A stretch of DNA of 64,000 nucleotides. It comes from an uncultured Candidatus Saccharibacteria bacterium (GTDB taxonomy: Bacteria; Patescibacteriota; Minisyncoccia; Phycocordibacterales; Phycocordibacteraceae). Made by a program: the position numbers and the translations under genes. Below the pieces are notes generated by a model that saw only the letters and a list, made by a program, of their open reading frames with translations, made no database searches and was not told where the DNA came from. Shown piece after piece: positions 7,857 to 63,752 of this stretch. Position 1 is the first letter of the stretch; each line of letters begins with the position of its first letter. The DNA lies in contig CAZJKG010000001.1 of assembly GCA_964546795.1 (NCBI GenBank), positions 61,690 through 125,689 of the forward strand. Reading direction: 5' to 3'.

Positions 7857-8004
7857 TACCCGACACACGGAAACGGACATAATTTTGCAAAAATAAGCCC
7901 TTTTTGGCACACGCGCCTCTTTAACTTTATACGAAATAAGACCATTGAAACGCGCTGTCTTCTGCGCGATGCCGTTTCGTGTGACGGGTGATATAATCGG
8001 CGGG

Positions 8005-9360
8005 ATGGCTGCCGACCGCGTCCCACCCCAATCCCTTGATTCAGAGCGCGCCCTCCTTGGCGCTCTTCTGCTGAAACCCGACGCCATCCATGATGTTTCC
8101 GATATTATACGGGCTGATTCTTTCTACGCGGAAAAGCACCGGCTGATATTCGGCGCGATGCATGAACTCGCCGAACGCGGCGAGCCGATAGATCTTCTTT
8201 CATTGTCCGAACGTATGCAGAATCAGGGATTGCTTGAACGGTCCGGCGGGCGCAGCTATTTGGCTGAGCTTGCCGGTTCGGCACCGGCGCCCGGCAACTT
8301 CTCCCACTATGCCGAACTCGTCTCGCGCAAATTCCTGATGCGCTCCCTCATTGAAGCCGCATACACCATTACCGAGTCCGCGTATGACGATGCGCGCGAA
8401 ACGATGGAAGTACTCGATGAGGCCGAGAAGAGCGTCTATGCCATCGGCAATGCTTCTGCGGCACATAAATTTACCGCTATCGGCGACAAGATCCACGAAG
8501 CATGGGACCGTATTGAGGCGCTTTCCAAAAAAGAAAGTGGGATTCGCGGCGTCCCTTCCGGCTTCCCTGCCCTTGATAACCTCCTCTCTGGCTTTCATCC
8601 CTCCGATCTCGTCATCATCGCCGCGCGCCCGTCGATGGGCAAGACCTCGCTTGCGCTTGATATTGCTCGGAACGCCGCCGTGCGTCATAACGTTCCTGTT
8701 GGCATCTTCTCGCTTGAGATGAGCTCGGAACAGCTTATTGACCGCATGCTCGCCGCGGAGTCGTTCGTCAATTCATGGAAACTCCGCACCGGTCAAGTGA
8801 GGGAGGAGGACGATTTCAATCGCATACGGGACGCCCTGGAATCGCTTTCGAAAGCACCTATTTATATAGACGACAAACCGGGCAACAATATCCTCGCAAT
8901 GCGCGCTGTTGCCAGACGGTTGAAGCGCGAACGCGGCATCGGGCTTCTCATCGTGGACTATCTGCAGCTCATGGCACCGACCTCCACCAAATCATCCGAT
9001 TCCCTCGTCCAGCAGGTGACCGAGATATCACGTTCTTTGAAGTCACTTGCGCGCGAGCTTGCCGTGCCGGTCATCGCGCTCTCACAGCTCTCGCGCGCGG
9101 TTGAACAGCGAGGCGGCAAGCCCCGCTTGAGCGATCTGCGCGATTCTGGAAGCATTGAGCAGGATGCGGACGTCGTGATGTTTATTCATCGCGACGACAA
9201 GCGCAATCCCGAAAGTGACCGGCCGAACATCGCGGAAATACTTATTGAGAAACATCGCAACGGACCGACCGGCAAGACCGAACTGTATTTTGATGAAAAG
9301 CGCGCGACGTTCCAGCCGATGGACACGGCCGGCTACGGCGAACTCGCCGCGGAATTTTAA
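8005..9360 (+). CDS. dnaB: replicative DNA helicase DnaB
   Basis: N-terminal DnaB domain (SERALLGALLL.PDAI) and Walker A ARPSMGKTSLALDIA, with RecA-like motifs. Start taken at the internal ATG (codon 21). Confidence 0.85.
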   Translation: MAADRVPPQSLDSERALLGALLLKPDAIHDVSDIIRADSFYAEKHRLIFGAMHELAERGEPIDLLSLSERMQNQGLLERSGGRSYLAELAGSAPAPGNFSHYAELVSRKFLMRSLIEAAYTITESAYDDARETMEVLDEAEKSVYAIGNASAAHKFTAIGDKIHEAWDRIEALSKKESGIRGVPSGFPALDNLLSGFHPSDLVIIAARPSMGKTSLALDIARNAAVRHNVPVGIFSLEMSSEQLIDRMLAAESFVNSWKLRTGQVREEDDFNRIRDALESLSKAPIYIDDKPGNNILAMRAVARRLKRERGIGLLIVDYLQLMAPTSTKSSDSLVQQVTEISRSLKSLARELAVPVIALSQLSRAVEQRGGKPRLSDLRDSGSIEQDADVVMFIHRDDKRNPESDRPNIAEILIEKHRNGPTGKTELYFDEKRATFQPMDTAGYGELAAEF

Positions 9361-9376
9361 TCATGTTAGCAGCACA

Positions 9377-9524
9377 GCGAATACGCAATGTTGGAAACCC
9401 TCGGAGCCGACGCAGCATGGTAATTGCAGCGCCGAAGAGAGGTTGCGCTGCAATTTGCGTCGGAGAGAGTGAATGCGGCCTGTCGCAGGACAGGCCGACA
9501 TGTGTTCCAACATTGCGTATTCGC
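9377..9524. repeat. highly structured inverted-repeat element between dnaB and recR (20-bp perfect outer stem plus nested hairpins)
   Basis: GCGAATACGCAATGTTGGAA ... TTCCAACATTGCGTATTCGC enclose CCGACGCA/TGCGTCGG, ATTGCAGCGC/GCGCTGCAAT and CGGCCTG/CAGGCCG stems. Confidence 0.6.
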
Positions 9525-9531
9525 AAACGTC

Positions 9532-10134
9532 ATGGATAAGATAGACGAACTTGCACAGGCACTTGCCCGCCTTCCCGGCATCGGCCCGAGGCAGGGCAAG
9601 CGTTTTGTGTTTTATCTCCTCGCCGCTCCTGTCGTCGAGCGTGCGAAGCTCGCTGAACTTATTTCCTCATTAGGAAAAGAAGTCCGCCAATGCGCCGACT
9701 GCCTGCGTTTCTATAATGGTTCTATGGCAAGCGCCTGCAATTATTGTTCCGACACGGCGCGCGACGATACACTTCTCATGCTCGTTGAGAAAGACCAGGA
9801 CCTCGCGGCAGTAGAGCGCGCCGGGACGTATCGCGGCCGTTACTTCGTGCTTGGCGGCGTGCTCACCCTTACGGGCAAAGGGGCCATCCGCGAAAAAGAA
9901 TTGCTGAAAATAGTAGAAAAACGTCTGAAGAATAATTTAAAAGAGATTGTTCTCGCGCTCGGGGCGACGAGCGAAGGAGAGCATACCGCCGACCGTGTGC
10001 GCGAACTGCTTGCGCCCTATCGCGATACGGTGAAGATATCAGTGCTCGGCCGCGGCCTTGCGACCGGCAGCGAGCTTGAGTACTCCGACGGCGAAACGCT
10101 CCGCGCCGCCCTCACCAACCGCAAAGAAACTTAA
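9532..10134 (+). CDS. recR: recombination protein RecR
   Basis: MDKIDELAQALARLPGIGPRQGKR (HhH), C4 zinc finger (C..C...C..C), and a Toprim region. Start taken at the internal ATG. Confidence 0.85.
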   Translation: MDKIDELAQALARLPGIGPRQGKRFVFYLLAAPVVERAKLAELISSLGKEVRQCADCLRFYNGSMASACNYCSDTARDDTLLMLVEKDQDLAAVERAGTYRGRYFVLGGVLTLTGKGAIREKELLKIVEKRLKNNLKEIVLALGATSEGEHTADRVRELLAPYRDTVKISVLGRGLATGSELEYSDGETLRAALTNRKET

Positions 10135-31927: not shown

Positions 31928-32041
31928 GCTCTGCAGTATACGCCCACCAAACCGGCTCGGCAAAACAAATTTCGCAGCCATCCACAATTTGTCGCTATAG
32001 CGACAAGTTGTGGATGGCTGCCCTTTTGAGTGGATACGCGC

Positions 32042-33175
32042 CTAGTGGACAATCTTGAAGATGTCGTGCGCCGTGACGACGACCATAAGAAGGACAAGAA
32101 AGACGAAGCTGATTGCATTAGCCGCGCGAGTGACGTTTACATCGATGGGGCGGCGGATGACGCTTTCAATGAGCACAAAGAGGAGCCGGCCGCCATCAAG
32201 CGCGGGAATGGGAATGAGATTGATGAGCGCAAGATTGATGGAAATAATCGCCATGATGGAGAGGAGATATTCAAATCCTTGTACCGATGCGGAACCGACG
32301 ACGCCCGCGATGCCGATGGGGCCTGCCACCTGCGAAAGGTCAGCTGAAAATGTGAAGACGCTGTAGAAAAAATGCCAGAGTCCGACTGCGGTGAGTTCGG
32401 TTGCGCTCCAAGTGAGCCGTGTGCCCTCTATAAGAGCCGCGCCGAAAGAGAGCGGTACAACGCCGATGGTAGCCACTTCAACTCCAAGCGCGTAGCGGCT
32501 TGGGTCGGCACTCGCAACGCCCGCTGCGGGCGTTGCGCTAATACTACGAACGTTCTCAGCATGCTTCACCATGAGAATGATTTCATTTCCGCCGCTTTGT
32601 GCAATAAATTCTGAAAAACTTTGAGGGTCCACAGCATGCCAGTCCCCCGCCGCATCATGCGCACTAAGTATTGAGTCGCCCGGTAGAAGTCCTGCAAGAG
32701 CCGCGGGCGAGCCGGGGAGCACGTTCGCGACCGCAAGTTCTGCACTACGAGCGTTTTGAATTTCATCCTGAGACAGCGCACGGGGCGTTCCGATGACGAG
32801 CGCGCCGGTGATAAGCACATAAGCAAAAAGGAGATTCATCGCGACACCGGCAATGAGCACAAACGCCTGAAGGATGCGCGGGCGAGCGGAAAACGAGCGT
32901 GGATCCACCCCTCCGCCTGCCTGCGCAGACAGACCATCCTCGCCGTATATCTTCACGAAACCGCCAAAAGGCAGCCAGTTGAGGGTGTACAGTGTCTCGC
33001 CCTTTTTTGCGATGACGGCCACGCGCGGCGGATAGCCGAGCCCGAATTCATCAACACGCATTCCCGAGAGTTTCGCTGCGACGAAATGTCCCAATTCATG
33101 TACTACGATAAGCGCAACGATAACGACGATAAAAATGAAAATAGTCACGAAGCGTATTATAGCAGAGCAATGAAT
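32042..33175 (-). CDS. rseP: RIP metalloprotease RseP (site-2 protease)
   Basis: HELGHF zinc motif, PDZ domain, LDG motif, multiple TM helices. The true start is unclear: the track ORF reaches 33256 but runs through an inverted-repeat element. Confidence 0.75.
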   Translation of the reverse strand: MHCSAIIRFVTIFIFIVVIVALIVVHELGHFVAAKLSGMRVDEFGLGYPPRVAVIAKKGETLYTLNWLPFGGFVKIYGEDGLSAQAGGGVDPRSFSARPRILQAFVLIAGVAMNLLFAYVLITGALVIGTPRALSQDEIQNARSAELAVANVLPGSPAALAGLLPGDSILSAHDAAGDWHAVDPQSFSEFIAQSGGNEIILMVKHAENVRSISATPAAGVASADPSRYALGVEVATIGVVPLSFGAALIEGTRLTWSATELTAVGLWHFFYSVFTFSADLSQVAGPIGIAGVVGSASVQGFEYLLSIMAIISINLALINLIPIPALDGGRLLFVLIESVIRRPIDVNVTRAANAISFVFLVLLMVVVTAHDIFKIVH

Positions 33176-33270
33176 CAGGGTATGCTGTTTTGGAACCGCA
33201 TAATTTCCTGCTGAAAATTTGCTCTGGCTCGCGCCGCCGCGCTCCGCACGTTCCAAAACAGCATACCCTG
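33176..33270. repeat. 21-bp perfect inverted repeat flanking a ~53-nt loop, between rseP and frr
   Basis: CAGGGTATGCTGTTTTGGAAC ... GTTCCAAAACAGCATACCCTG. Confidence 0.6.
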
Positions 33271-33285
33271 TATTCGTGCTCTATG

Positions 33286-37562: not shown

Positions 37563-37584
37563 GAGAATGGGCGAAGCAGAAAAA

Positions 37585-37674
37585 GATAGTTGGACTTGGC
37601 CTCTCGAACCGGAGCGACCAATTTTTCTTGCCTGTACTCAGGATTAGAAAAATGGAAGTGCTCTTGTGGTGCGC
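37585..37674 (-). repeat. intergenic repeat family A, copy 2 (reverse orientation)
   Basis: Its reverse complement aligns to 3580-3671 with about 80% identity, including a compensatory GCCCG/CGGGC -> CCTG/CAGG stem change. Confidence 0.7.
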
Positions 37675-37717
37675 TAGCTTTTTCTGCTTTGCTCGTGAAC
37701 GGCTATACTGTAAAGGT

Positions 37718-38171: not shown

Positions 38172-39578
38172 ATGAAAGAAATCGTGCAAGATGGCACGCC
38201 AGTGTTGCGCGATATCGCATTGCCCGTGCCCGAGGATCTCTTCGGCACCCCGGAGCTCGTGCATCTCATCAAGGACATGGAGGAGGCGCTCGACAAAGAG
38301 ACCGAGGGCGTCGCACTCGCCGCGCCGCAAATAGGAGTGTCGTACCGCGTCTTCATCGTAAGGAAAGACAGAACCCGTCCTTCGCCAAAGGCTACGGAGG
38401 GCACAGCACTTCCCCTACACGCGCCGCGAAGCGGCGCGTCGGGCAAACTTTTAGCGGAGTCGGAAGTTTTAGCCCCCGAAATAGAGGTCTTTATCAATCC
38501 CGAGATTGTAAAGACCTCCCGCAAGCGAGCAAAGACAGACGAAGGATGTCTCTCGGTTCGCGGCGTGTACGGCACGACCAACCGGCACGAACGCGTTACC
38601 ATCCGCGCCCGTCGTCCTGACGGCTCTAAACTAACGCGCGGCGCCGGCGGACTCTTGGCGCAAATATTCGAACATGAAATAGACCATTTGAACGGCATCC
38701 TCTTTATTGACCATGCCGAACATCTCATTCACATAAAGCGTCAATTGGAGCATCGCTTCGCCTATTTCGGTACGCCCCATGTCGCGAGCGATACGCTTGC
38801 CATTCTCATCGAACGCGGGTTTGTACCTTCCGTCGTTGTAACTTCTCCGGACGCGCCGAAAGGTCGGGGTCTTGCTCTTGCACCGTCCGAAACGAAAAAG
38901 CTCGCGCTTGTACACGGTATCCCCGTCATGACTCCGGAAAAATTAGACGCAAATGCAATCGCTGAGATAAATACATTCGCATGCGACTATGCCGTCGTCG
39001 TCGCCTACGGCAAGATATTTCCCGAAGAGCTTATAACCGCATTCCCCCGAGGCGTGGTAAATGTCCATTATTCACTTCTGCCGAAATATCGCGGAGCGAC
39101 ACCGCTTGAGACGGCTCTCCTTTCGGGCGACACGGAGACCGGCGTGACTATACAAGAAATGGTGCGTGAACTTGATGCGGGCGACATCATTGCGCAGAAG
39201 ACCACCGAAATTGCGCTGTTTGAGACCGCGCGCGAGCTGCGAGCGCGACTCATCGATATGGGAGCTTCCCTGCTTGCCGACACTCTCCCCGAATACGCAG
39301 CGGGGCGCATTGAGCCAGTTCCGCAAGACGCCTCCCGCGTCACGCGCACGAGGAAACTCAAAAAAGAAGACGGGCTTCTCTCACTTGATGCTCCTGCCGA
39401 AGTGAACTGGAACAAATACCGCGCATATGCCGACACTATCGGCACCTATTTCTTTGATCCGCCAATCGGCGGAGGTAAGCGAATTAAAATAACGGCGGCC
39501 TCATTTAAAAACGGGGTATTTGTCATCGAGCGCGTCATTCCCGAAGGTAAACGCGAGATGAACTACTCCGCGCGGTAA
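38172..39578 (+). CDS. bifunctional peptide deformylase / methionyl-tRNA formyltransferase fusion (Def-Fmt)
   Basis: The N-terminal half carries PDF motifs G.A.PQIG, EGCLSVRG and HEIDHLNG. The C-terminal half carries Fmt motifs (FGTP, HYSLLPKYRGATP, a C-terminal domain). It is a single uninterrupted 468-codon frame. Confidence 0.8.
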   Translation: MKEIVQDGTPVLRDIALPVPEDLFGTPELVHLIKDMEEALDKETEGVALAAPQIGVSYRVFIVRKDRTRPSPKATEGTALPLHAPRSGASGKLLAESEVLAPEIEVFINPEIVKTSRKRAKTDEGCLSVRGVYGTTNRHERVTIRARRPDGSKLTRGAGGLLAQIFEHEIDHLNGILFIDHAEHLIHIKRQLEHRFAYFGTPHVASDTLAILIERGFVPSVVVTSPDAPKGRGLALAPSETKKLALVHGIPVMTPEKLDANAIAEINTFACDYAVVVAYGKIFPEELITAFPRGVVNVHYSLLPKYRGATPLETALLSGDTETGVTIQEMVRELDAGDIIAQKTTEIALFETARELRARLIDMGASLLADTLPEYAAGRIEPVPQDASRVTRTRKLKKEDGLLSLDAPAEVNWNKYRAYADTIGTYFFDPPIGGGKRIKITAASFKNGVFVIERVIPEGKREMNYSAR

Positions 39579-39637
39579 ACCTTAAAAAAGGTAGCGCTCC
39601 GGGCCGCTAGGCCAAGTCCTACTACCTTTTTTAAGGT
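39579..39637 (+). terminator. 16-bp perfect-stem hairpin whose loop is the repeat-A core; bidirectional terminator between fmt and hpf
   Basis: ACCTTAAAAAAGGTAG-[CGCTCCGGGCCGCTAGGCCAAGTCCTA]-CTACCTTTTTTAAGGT, starting 1 nt after the fmt stop. Confidence 0.6.
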
Positions 39638-39655
39638 TTGCCGGCTCCGTAAAAT

Positions 39656-40442: not shown

Positions 40443-40735
40443 TCCGGGATAGCTCAATGGTAGAGCAGCGCCCTGTGGCTTACGCAGCTTTTCAGAGGAA
40501 TCTGGATCGAATAACGAGGTGAATTGCTGGAAACCCTTCGTGGGCAATCAGCAGCCAAGTCCCGCCGTCGGCTGGAAAGGTTCAGAGACTATCCCGAAAG
40601 GGAGTACTGTCCCGATGTAAAGTCGGAATGGGAAGCGCCTCGCACCGAGAAACGGTGATGATATAGTCCATCCCTTTTGGAAACTTAAGGAGCGATGTAA
40701 GGCGTTGGTTGCAGGTTCGAGTCCTGCTCCCGGAG
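40443..40735 (+). tRNA. tRNA (anticodon read as GTT, Asn) interrupted by a ~221-nt group I intron in the anticodon loop
   Basis: Exon 1 (40443-40476) and exon 2 (40698-40735) form a clean cloverleaf: acceptor TCCGGGA/TCCCGGA, D arm GCTC-AATGGTA-GAGC, anticodon stem GCGCC/GGCGT, loop CTGT^TAA, T arm GCAGG-TTCGAGT-CCTGC. Confidence 0.7.
40477..40697 (+). ncRNA. group I self-splicing intron
   Basis: 5' exon ends in U and the intron ends in G. Internal CAGCAGCCAAGTCC, GGTTCAGAGACTA and ATGTAAAGTCGGAATGGG resemble conserved P4/P7 core segments of Tetrahymena/cyanobacterial tRNA group I introns. Too short to encode a homing endonuclease. Confidence 0.65.
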
Positions 40736-40969
40736 CTAGAAAAAGTTAGGCCCTGATGCGGACAGCATTGGGGTCTTACTTTTTCTCTCCGCGGACAGGA
40801 CTCGAAAGCGAGCGCGGGTACCAGTCGAGCACGACTGGTCGCGCGAGGCGGCTCGCGAAATACTGGAGCGACGGCGACAGTATTTTGTGAGAGAGATGCG
40901 TACTCGCGATCCTGCTCCCGGAGCAAAATAACCGTAGGTCGGTTCAAGATGGCACTTTAGGGTGCTATT

Positions 40970-45861: not shown

Positions 45862-46037
45862 CACAAACTTTGAATTACGAAACTCTCATGAGCGACCGTC
45901 CGCAGGCGCTGAGCTCTGGTGTTTTTTGGCTATACTGCGCGGAGCAAGCCAAAAAACTCAGCGCCGAGGACAGAGCGACGAGCCGCTGGAGCGAGCTCGC
46001 GTGTCGCACGGGAGAGTTTCGTAATTCAAAGTCACAA
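45862..46037. mobile_element. MITE-like element: 21-bp perfect terminal inverted repeats flanked by 5-bp direct repeat CACAA
   Basis: CACAA-ACTTTGAATTACGAAACTCTC ... GAGAGTTTCGTAATTCAAAGT-CACAA. The interior holds a further imperfect hairpin (GCGCTGAGCTCTGGTGTTTTTTGGC / GCCAAAAAACTCAGCGCC). Non-coding. Confidence 0.5.
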
Positions 46038-63708: not shown

Positions 63709-63752
63709 CACTATCCACAATACAATGCGGTCGCATTGTATTGTGGATAGTG
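63709..63752. repeat. palindrome family B, copy 2 (21-bp perfect arms)
   Basis: CACTATCCACAATACAATGCG-GT-CGCATTGTATTGTGGATAGTG. Confidence 0.6.

Follow-up and report, generated by a model that had tools for sequence, protein, structure and literature searches.

A probable copy of a dispersed palindromic family between dnaB and recR in Patescibacteria, with a candidate ribosome-relay reading frame

[quoted passage not shown] A 2024 review of prokaryotic MITEs makes no mention of Patescibacteria, and our literature search found no description of repeat elements in Patescibacteria. Here we analyse a 148-nt inverted-repeat structure (9377-9524) between dnaB and recR in a 64,000-nt stretch of a Patescibacteria contig (the window). 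With a probability of about 0.6, we read it as the 'long' variant copy of an old, dispersed palindromic family in Kaiserbacteria-like Patescibacteria: a non-autonomous, MITE/ERIC-like insertion element that would be co-transcribed in the dnaB-recR operon, neutralised there by a small relay open reading frame (ORF), and constrained in the single-stranded form of its sense strand.

The 148-nt structure and its dispersed family

The outer arms, GCGAATACGCAATGTTGGAA (9377-9396) and TTCCAACATTGCGTATTCGC (9505-9524), are 20 nt each and 100% complementary, as an earlier note on this DNA had described. The 8-bp inner stem that it listed also stands (9407-9414/9456-9463), whereas its 10-bp stem has 11 bp (9422-9432/9445-9455) and its separate 7-bp hairpin has 9 (9476-9484/9489-9497), or 12 pairs in the predicted fold. 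Nor does the structure fill the dnaB-recR spacer, as had been claimed, since 16 nt (9361-9376) lie before it and 7 nt (9525-9531) separate it from the recR ATG. Its predicted RNA fold is a three-way junction with a perfect 20-bp outer stem (P1) around two branches (P2 and P3), the first of which has a 3-bp base, CTC/GAG. The fold energy is -87.2 kcal/mol against -52 ± 4 in 200 dinucleotide shuffles (z = -8.7; no shuffle as good), and the reverse strand folds equally well (z = -9.3). The parts of the insert are as follows.

9361-9376, + strand: left linker, TCATGTTAGCAGCACA, in which the relay ORF opens (ATG, 9363) and the left TCATG lies (9361-9365)
9377-9396, + strand: P1 5' arm, 20 nt; 9 of 22 P1 pairs have compensatory changes among four orthologues
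9397-9399, + strand: junction J1/2, ACC, taken from the fold and common to bridging members such as L113
9400-9469, + strand: P2 arm, with the CTC/GAG base, a purine-rich internal loop GGA/AGA, the 8-bp stem, the 11-bp distal stem and a 12-nt loop
9470-9472, + strand: junction J2/3, TGA, family-conserved in the alignments (GAGAGTGAGCG motif)
9473-9501, + strand: P3 hairpin, 12 pairs, loop GCAG; 4 of 9 pairs have compensatory changes
9502-9504, + strand: junction J3/1, GTG, from the fold and family comparison
9505-9524, + strand: P1 3' arm, 20 nt, perfect complement of the 5' arm
9525-9531, + strand: right tail, AAACGTC, which joined to the recR ATG gives the right TCATG (9530-9534)

Related structures recur at many other places. 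The family core is a three-way junction formed by a P2 with a G(N)A/GA internal loop, junctions of about ACY, TGA and GTG/GTA, and the P3 hairpin; it is clamped by a long P1 whose sequence varies between copies while complementarity is kept. Family members span 75-170 nt, with arms of 9-43 bp in the other copies. The P2 of the dnaB-recR copy is an expanded form of the family's short, GACG-capped P2, and P2 expansions are found also in L082, L118 and L112 (L-numbers are labels of compared loci; the family copies include L082-L201 and others). The additional copies that the earlier note anticipated for a MITE-like element are indeed present, at unrelated loci in many genomes and twice more in the window.

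33164-33282, - strand: second window copy, short variant, 33-nt arms (77.3 bits and 76.5 bits with two models)
45867-46032, + strand: third, divergent window copy, 30-nt arms, of the TGAATTACGAAACT terminal-repeat subfamily, with expanded P2 GTCC-GCA-GGCG...CGCC-GA-GGAC

The second copy sits between two co-directional minus-strand genes, 3 nt past the upstream stop, and the third is a weak covariance match (45888-46011, 13 bits, E = 0.5). What recurs is the core: the 20-nt arm has no second occurrence in the window at up to 3 mismatches (0.03 chance matches expected), and 1.5 Mb of collected sequence holds it only in the orthologue L028 (3 mismatches) and in L176 (4 mismatches). Further short-variant loci are L028 4648-4746 (between recR and a convergent helicase gene), L068 (in the cysS-dnaB spacer) and L080; where L028 carries its copy, the recR and DEAD helicase genes of L002 overlap. 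Scanning metagenomes with the short-variant P3 pattern yielded at least 120 contigs, a set in which P3 sequence conservation is partly imposed by the search pattern. The covariance model gave at least 147 matches, 144 of them distinct, on at least 120 metagenome contigs plus seven other sources; among the matches listed, 20 contigs have two copies each. Copies on the same contig share the core and mostly differ in P1; they are only 43-73% identical overall, with just one pair at 90%, and the family bears no sign of a recent burst of copying.

The long and short variants are joined by intermediates. In L113, L133 and L200 the long-variant junction (CTCTCGGA...GAGAGTGAGCG...CGCGTG) is combined with a short-variant P3, the junction sequence of these bridging members reading ACTCTCGGA ... 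GAGAGTGAGCG ... CGCGTG. A short variant at an unrelated locus (L176 592-681, - strand) has a P1, GGATGCGCAATGTCGGAAC, almost the same as that of the dnaB-recR copy, and the P1 sequence GCGRATRCGCAATGTYGGAA is common to the window, L028 and L176. The TGAATTRCGAAAYT terminal-repeat subfamily takes in the window copy at 45867-46032, and unrelated cargo is found between the same ends in L143/L162 and L118. A search for a parent element by widely spaced TGAATTRCGAAAYT pairs, made in the compared loci, returned one 1-kb pair: at L150 733-1750, two TGAATTACGAAACT ends stand in inverted orientation, 1 kb apart, around one gene. Judged by eye from its translation, the gene looks MltG/YceG-like and belongs to the host, and nothing in it suggests a transposase; the ends may be two half-elements, or the host gene may have been captured between them.

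No Rfam 15 match for the family was obtained, either in the window at the gathering threshold or at six loci with short and long members, and a permissive Rfam scan of the 148-nt structure returned chance-level matches only (13 bits, E about 5-6). Two scans of viral contigs gave 1 and 4 matches, attributable to chance in GC-rich coding DNA or to a fragment without P1.

To score orientation, genes were called with a self-trained codon model, the output of which matches the source contig's public annotation. Between co-directional genes, 34 copies are sense and 32 antisense; a further 20 have convergent neighbours and 9 have divergent ones, and the lack of bias also held with cruder gene calls. 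Neighbours of antisense copies, recognised by eye from ORF translations, are presumably L11, FtsE/FtsX and ribosome recycling factor. A selfish element of the MITE/ERIC type accounts for this balance more readily than a dedicated riboregulator of recR would; nor do we read the structure as a housekeeping riboregulator, for which the earlier note had called such flawless long stems unusual.

Covariation and strand asymmetry of the stems

Double changes affect 17 of the 52 pairs in the four long variants, and pairing extends to 97.6% of cells, values that none of 500 shuffles reaches for either measure; sliding the partners out of register abolishes this signal. Compensatory changes fill 574 cells in the short family against 191 in shuffles, in an alignment that was model-fitted and therefore leans towards structure. 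The structured RNA among the options of the earlier note is upheld to the extent that compensatory changes keep the stems, as would be expected of a structured single strand.

We also applied an unfitted test to P1, extending the stem beyond the modelled 9 bp and treating all kinds of mismatch alike. Outside the modelled region P1 contains 1122 Watson-Crick pairs alongside 48 G·U and 11 A·C, and counting once per position per cluster of related stems leaves 41 G·U against 10 A·C (p = 1.5e-5). Arm composition is symmetric (GC 212/CG 210; AT 358/TA 342). Because a process acting on double-stranded DNA predicts equal G·T and A·C, these counts suggest that the sense strand of the element is constrained as a single strand, be it RNA or single-stranded DNA (ssDNA). 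The excess of G·U persists in copies antisense to their genes (14 against 6 A·C), so that folding of the host mRNA can account for it only in part.

The two arms of P1 also differ from one another. Over 144 copies, mismatches by arm comprise 38 G(5')·T(3') and 12 G·A, compared with 10 T·G and no A·G, an asymmetry that would, as speculation, fit one arm having been copied from the other by an error-prone polymerase. A 74-nt unit is identical in L054, L155 and L016 (one base off in L183), while the outer stems around it are completely different yet complementary; such a core could have been homogenised by gene conversion, or spread by lateral transfer.

The dnaB-recR junction and the relay frame

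The genes at the junction, and the small frame that connects them, are as follows.

7945-9360, + strand: dnaB, replicative helicase ORF (Pfam DnaB/DnaB_C), TAA stop at 9358-9360
9363-9539, + strand: relay ORF, 58 codons, starting 2 nt past the dnaB stop; its TAA overlaps the recR start (ATGGATAA)
9532-10134, + strand: recR (Pfam RecR/Toprim), 200-aa product unchanged on the source contig; 2586 homologues found

An identical RecR protein is recorded for two contigs, one of which (ENA ERZ27284378, a metagenome) matches the window, and its relatives bear the labels Kaiserbacteria, Paceibacterota or Patescibacteria. We compared the locus across 80 species-level genomes, with gap lengths from 78. 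The dnaB product is 72-96% identical (mostly 83-94%) over the aligned C-terminal segment in the 80 relatives, and dnaB lies immediately upstream of recR in nearly all of them. The gap is just 2-30 nt in about 55 of the 78, the commonest junctions being TAATGG, where stop and start overlap, and TAAATGG; gaps of 114-173 nt occur only at sites with a family copy, and the window's spacer is 171 nt. By this comparison, the 171-nt spacer is an insertion into a junction ancestrally built for translational coupling. Comparison with relatives, which the earlier note had proposed, thus finds the site empty in most of them and not a conserved spacer.

Clearly homologous long variants of 146-148 nt occupy the junction in L028, L002 and L004, and short variants of 90-100 nt, with a small P2 and an A/T-rich P3, in L016, L054, L040 and L155. 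Insertion of the core into a pre-existing hairpin is a poor fit at dnaB-recR, where empty sites lack any spacer, and likewise sits poorly with the overlap of the recR and helicase genes in L002. In the nearest relative found, L207 (RecR 97% identical), the spacer is down to 30 nt, made up of the left linker and a piece of the 5' arm, after an in-frame loss of 141 nt; the shared dnaB 3' end is, by eye, almost identical to that of the window. The left linker is kept in L028 as well as in the L207 remnant and is missing from empty sites. Relatives with RecR 94% and 90% identical have empty sites, and the spacers of L018, L015 and L080 look like further remnants of the element. Taken together, the element is patchily present among relatives, lost by deletion and dispensable. 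The earlier note had considered a recent MITE-like insertion: a multi-copy insertion at a site empty in most relatives agrees with what we find, but it is not recent, because orthologous copies occur in species with RecR only 83-93% identical, where the stems differ and are still complementary. The window copy is closer to that of L028 than to that of its apparent sister L002, which hints at lateral exchange through recombination of the conserved flanks; the neighbour-joining tree of DnaB+RecR is too poorly resolved for gains and losses to be counted.

Direct repeats bracket several of the inserts: TCATG in the window (9361-9365 and 9530-9534), ATGGA in L002 and L004, and TATGGA in L040. This casts doubt on the earlier description of the insertion as lacking a target-site duplication. 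The left ATG may originally have been one copy of such a duplication, a history compatible with its reading as the relay start. Loci other than dnaB-recR show no visible flanking duplication.

Every scored family copy at dnaB-recR (7 of 7) is spanned by a small ORF, and an eighth, L155, agrees by eye. The relay ATG lies 0-7 nt past the dnaB stop (TAATCATG, TAAAATGGA, TAAATGAAA), and the relay stop falls 0-5 nt ahead of the recR ATG or overlaps it (TAACTATG, TAAGTATG, TAATGTATG, ATGGATAA), being placed in the right tail of relatives as GTAACT, ATAAGT or TGTAATGT. Spanning ORFs arise in 1-3% of shuffled spacers per locus; of the 21 spacers of at least 20 nt at dnaB-recR, 14 have one against 2.2 expected. 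The encoded peptides are unconserved: the nearly identical cores of L016 and L054 are read in different frames, and in L002 and L004 a 1-nt indel puts the relay frame out of step with that of the window copy. Remnants in L207, L018, L015 and L080 retain a relay ORF of 6-17 codons; in L207 it encodes MLAKRMRKHHG*, the stop overlapping just as it does in the window. The L176 copy, at its unrelated locus, is bridged as well: the ORF opens within the final part of the upstream gene, and its stop lies on the ATG of the downstream one (ATGA). Across the whole family, open frames number 198 of 432 in sense and 140 of 432 in antisense, a moderate difference only, and translation-through as a general property of the family was rejected on finding many tight-junction copies closed in all frames. 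At dnaB-recR itself, the placement of starts and stops suggests a relay that would preserve translational coupling across the element; our literature search found no description of a relay ORF carrying ribosomes across an inserted repeat element.

These observations can be assembled into a candidate mechanism. The element inserted into an overlapping or touching dnaB-recR junction (TAATGG) and would be co-transcribed with both genes, as suggested by the finding of no promoter-like or terminator-like site at 9000-9900. By eye, recR has no obvious Shine-Dalgarno sequence; it would depend on ribosomes handed over from dnaB, and a bare element would block this coupling-dependent translation. The relay ORF would start ribosomes at the dnaB stop, whose passage would unwind the structure, and by ending on or beside the recR ATG would allow them to re-initiate there, such that only versions of the insert able to relay ribosomes would persist at dnaB-recR. 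Pairing of the sense strand would probably serve the element's own propagation or recognition rather than control of recR. The influence on recR expression proposed in the earlier note is still plausible, but the relay ORF and the loss of the element in the closest relative point towards neutralisation.

Several points weigh against this account. The short-variant covariance models (R1, R2) miss the dnaB-recR copy, with its expanded P2 and different P3, and its membership of the family would be carried by junction identity, the bridging members and the P1 shared with L176. P1 is not a family-wide conserved terminal repeat, unlike what MITEs usually show and closer to a functional RNA, and no transposase, cognate autonomous element or recent identical copies were found among the compared loci. 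The duplication is seen at dnaB-recR only, where selection for a start codon could be an alternative cause. Many tight-junction copies elsewhere are closed in every frame, and so translation through the element is not general. Transcription, relay translation and coupling are all deduced from sequence, and the G·U excess in antisense copies is unexplained by host mRNA structure.

The junction also receives unrelated inserts. Unrelated palindromes stand there in L071 (2432-2559) and L038 (1210-1298) and also in L022, L046, L061 and L209, one type with CCCGTTAGAAAT arms and the other built from CTAGGG/TAAGGT-like repeats; the junction is a hotspot where palindromes insert. Larger inserts comprise an 82-codon ORF in L035 (3743-4001), about 550 nt in L013 (3446-4001) and, in the four genomes L037, L047, L052 and L069, a stretch the size of a gene (about 1.26 kb).

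Alternative explanations and comparison with described systems

A dedicated cis-regulatory RNA of recR that evolved in the spacer, acting as riboregulator, translational operator or RNase III processing site, would account for the strong fold and covarying stems, for a 3' arm that ends 7 nt ahead of the recR ATG and for the excess of G·U over A·C on the mRNA-sense strand; long perfect duplexes in Correia-element transcripts are RNase III substrates (PMC10969869), which speaks for the same explanation. We nevertheless consider it improbable, given that most relatives do without the element and have an overlapping stop/start instead, that it is deleted in a relative with 97% identical RecR, that the same core stands at many unrelated loci, as often as not antisense to genes, and that Rfam offers no match. 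Far less probable again is a real small protein gene, of 58 aa, between dnaB and recR. It would explain why an uninterrupted ATG-to-stop ORF is found in every copy at dnaB-recR, but the peptides are unconserved and the frame changes (L016 versus L054; L002/L004 versus the window), the remnants retain just 6-17 codons, and many copies at other loci have no open frame across the element.

The remaining alternatives concern the nature of the pairing. Perfect inverted repeats are known to arise by quasi-palindrome template switching, and a feature of double-stranded DNA only, a cruciform-forming palindrome kept perfect by template-switch correction, would agree with flawless stems, with two strands that fold equally well and with random orientation relative to genes. 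Such a feature predicts G·T and A·C in equal numbers, yet 41 and 10 were counted, and sequence conservation covers the asymmetric core, in which P2 and P3 do not form palindromes of one another; we therefore think the DNA-only feature about as improbable as regulation of recR. A self-standing functional RNA or ssDNA module (a ribozyme, a protein-binding RNA or a mobile-element recognition structure), with an active core and P1 as a mere clamp, is rather unlikely in our estimation. It has in its favour the conserved junction nucleotides beside arms that vary in length and sequence, the strong covariation, the strand-asymmetric mismatches even in copies antisense to host genes, and the 74-nt unit that is shared by L054, L155, L016 and, but for one base, L183 across differing outer stems; set against these are the want of a promoter or terminator of its own, of any orientation preference and of any associated gene among those found, a core unlike those of known ribozymes (Rfam; hammerhead and twister motifs by eye only), and a conservation of P3 in the metagenome set that was partly set by the search pattern. 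Readings of the junction as a hammerhead, twister, k-turn or retron were tried by eye, and none fits the consensus features. The arm-asymmetric mismatches, together with the identical 74-nt unit inside different complementary outer stems, hint at a broader idea that we hold only tentatively: the core might be an unrecognised single-stranded module across Patescibacteria (once more a new ribozyme or protein-binding RNA, or else the structure by which a mobile element with an RNA or ssDNA intermediate is recognised), its clamp stem perhaps built or repaired by templated copying between the arms. The reading that we prefer is still an old insertion element, neutralised at dnaB-recR by the relay ORF.

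The window contains further structured features. A group I intron at 40480-40690 (RF00028, 81.6 bits) interrupts the anticodon loop of a tRNA gene at 40446-40750; the tRNA's 5' half is TCCGGGATAGCTCAATGGTAGAGCAGCGCCCTGTGG, its 3' half ends ...GCAGGTTCGAGTCCTGCTCCCGGAG, and ARAGORN gives no call. Group I introns in Patescibacteria tRNA genes were recently reported (PMC13011429), and the split gene fits that description. Near-perfect palindromes at 63709-63752 and 31974-32021 have arms of 21 and 24 nt, each of which includes a DnaA-box-like motif (TATCCACAA, CATCCACAA), and intergenic long-stem elements at 37571-37692 (19-nt arms, fold z about -5) and 39573-39643 (22-nt arms) have no obvious relation to the family. 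Among the compared loci, a second element family lies about 1.8 kb downstream of recR (L009 5750-5832, L014 5823-5893, L024 5839-5927, L067 6677-6749), with variable, complementary closing stems of 14-17 bp and a conserved interior, CGCGACTGGCTG ... CCCGAAGGAGCGAG.

A widespread family absent from Rfam 15 is thus described in a phylum with very small, compact genomes, and its signature is unusual in uniting a conserved junction core, variable but perfectly complementary clamps and strand-asymmetric wobble pairs; a well-covarying three-way junction should be of interest to RNA biologists. The locus indicates that a tightly coupled operon junction can absorb a hairpin of -87 kcal/mol, across which an unconserved relay ORF may hand over ribosomes. 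If confirmed, the relay would be a clean natural case of selection for the act of translation and not for the peptide, and a caution for annotation, in which ORFs of this sort might be listed as small hypothetical genes.

The closest described systems are the Correia and ERIC elements. The Patescibacteria element resembles them in its length (about 75-170 nt), in encoding no transposase, in long terminal inverted repeats that fold the transcript into a hairpin, in being intergenic, in occurring in multiple copies and either orientation with presence that varies between related genomes, and in a likely effect on operon expression. In keeping with a MITE, it is small, has terminal inverted repeats and contains no transposase gene (only the unconserved relay ORF), there are three copies in the 64-kb window, and filled and empty sites coexist among related genomes. 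It differs in having no sequence similarity to either and no identified IHF site or promoter motif. In Correia and ERIC elements, moreover, the terminal repeats are conserved, whereas here the core is conserved and the terminal stems differ between copies, and the copies within a genome are old and divergent. With RPEs it shares a palindromic build, a length of about 100-150 nt, a setting in reduced genomes and, on the relay reading, passage by ribosomes; RPEs, however, lie in frame inside protein genes and encode a conserved peptide, while the present element is intergenic, is crossed by a separate relay ORF of unconserved peptide and frame, and in many Patescibacteria copies is not translatable at all.

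REP/REPIN sequences (RAYT) and the hairpin ends of IS200/IS605 are likewise extragenic palindromes whose folded single strand matters, and a palindrome acting as ssDNA would explain the strand-specific excess of G·T wobbles. REPINs conserve the stem and vary the loop, the opposite of the variable stems and conserved core seen here; no RAYT, TnpA or TnpB gene is noted near the copies, though none was looked for, and, unlike this class, the family flanks show no conserved target motif of 4-5 nt. Integron attC sites were considered and set aside: the inner P1, TTGGAA/TTCCAA, misfits the R''/R' core sites (RYYYAAC ... GTTRRRY) and varies between copies, and the copies are single, scattered and in both orientations, not co-oriented cassette arrays. 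At the level of the operon, the nearest parallel is termination-reinitiation coupling where stop and start codons overlap (TAATG, ATGA), to which the ancestral dnaB-recR junction, TAATGG or TAAATGG, conforms. The relay ORF recreates that geometry at both of its ends, as TAATCATG at the first and ATGGATAA or TAANNATG at the second, and departs from described cases of such coupling in that it crosses an inserted repeat element.

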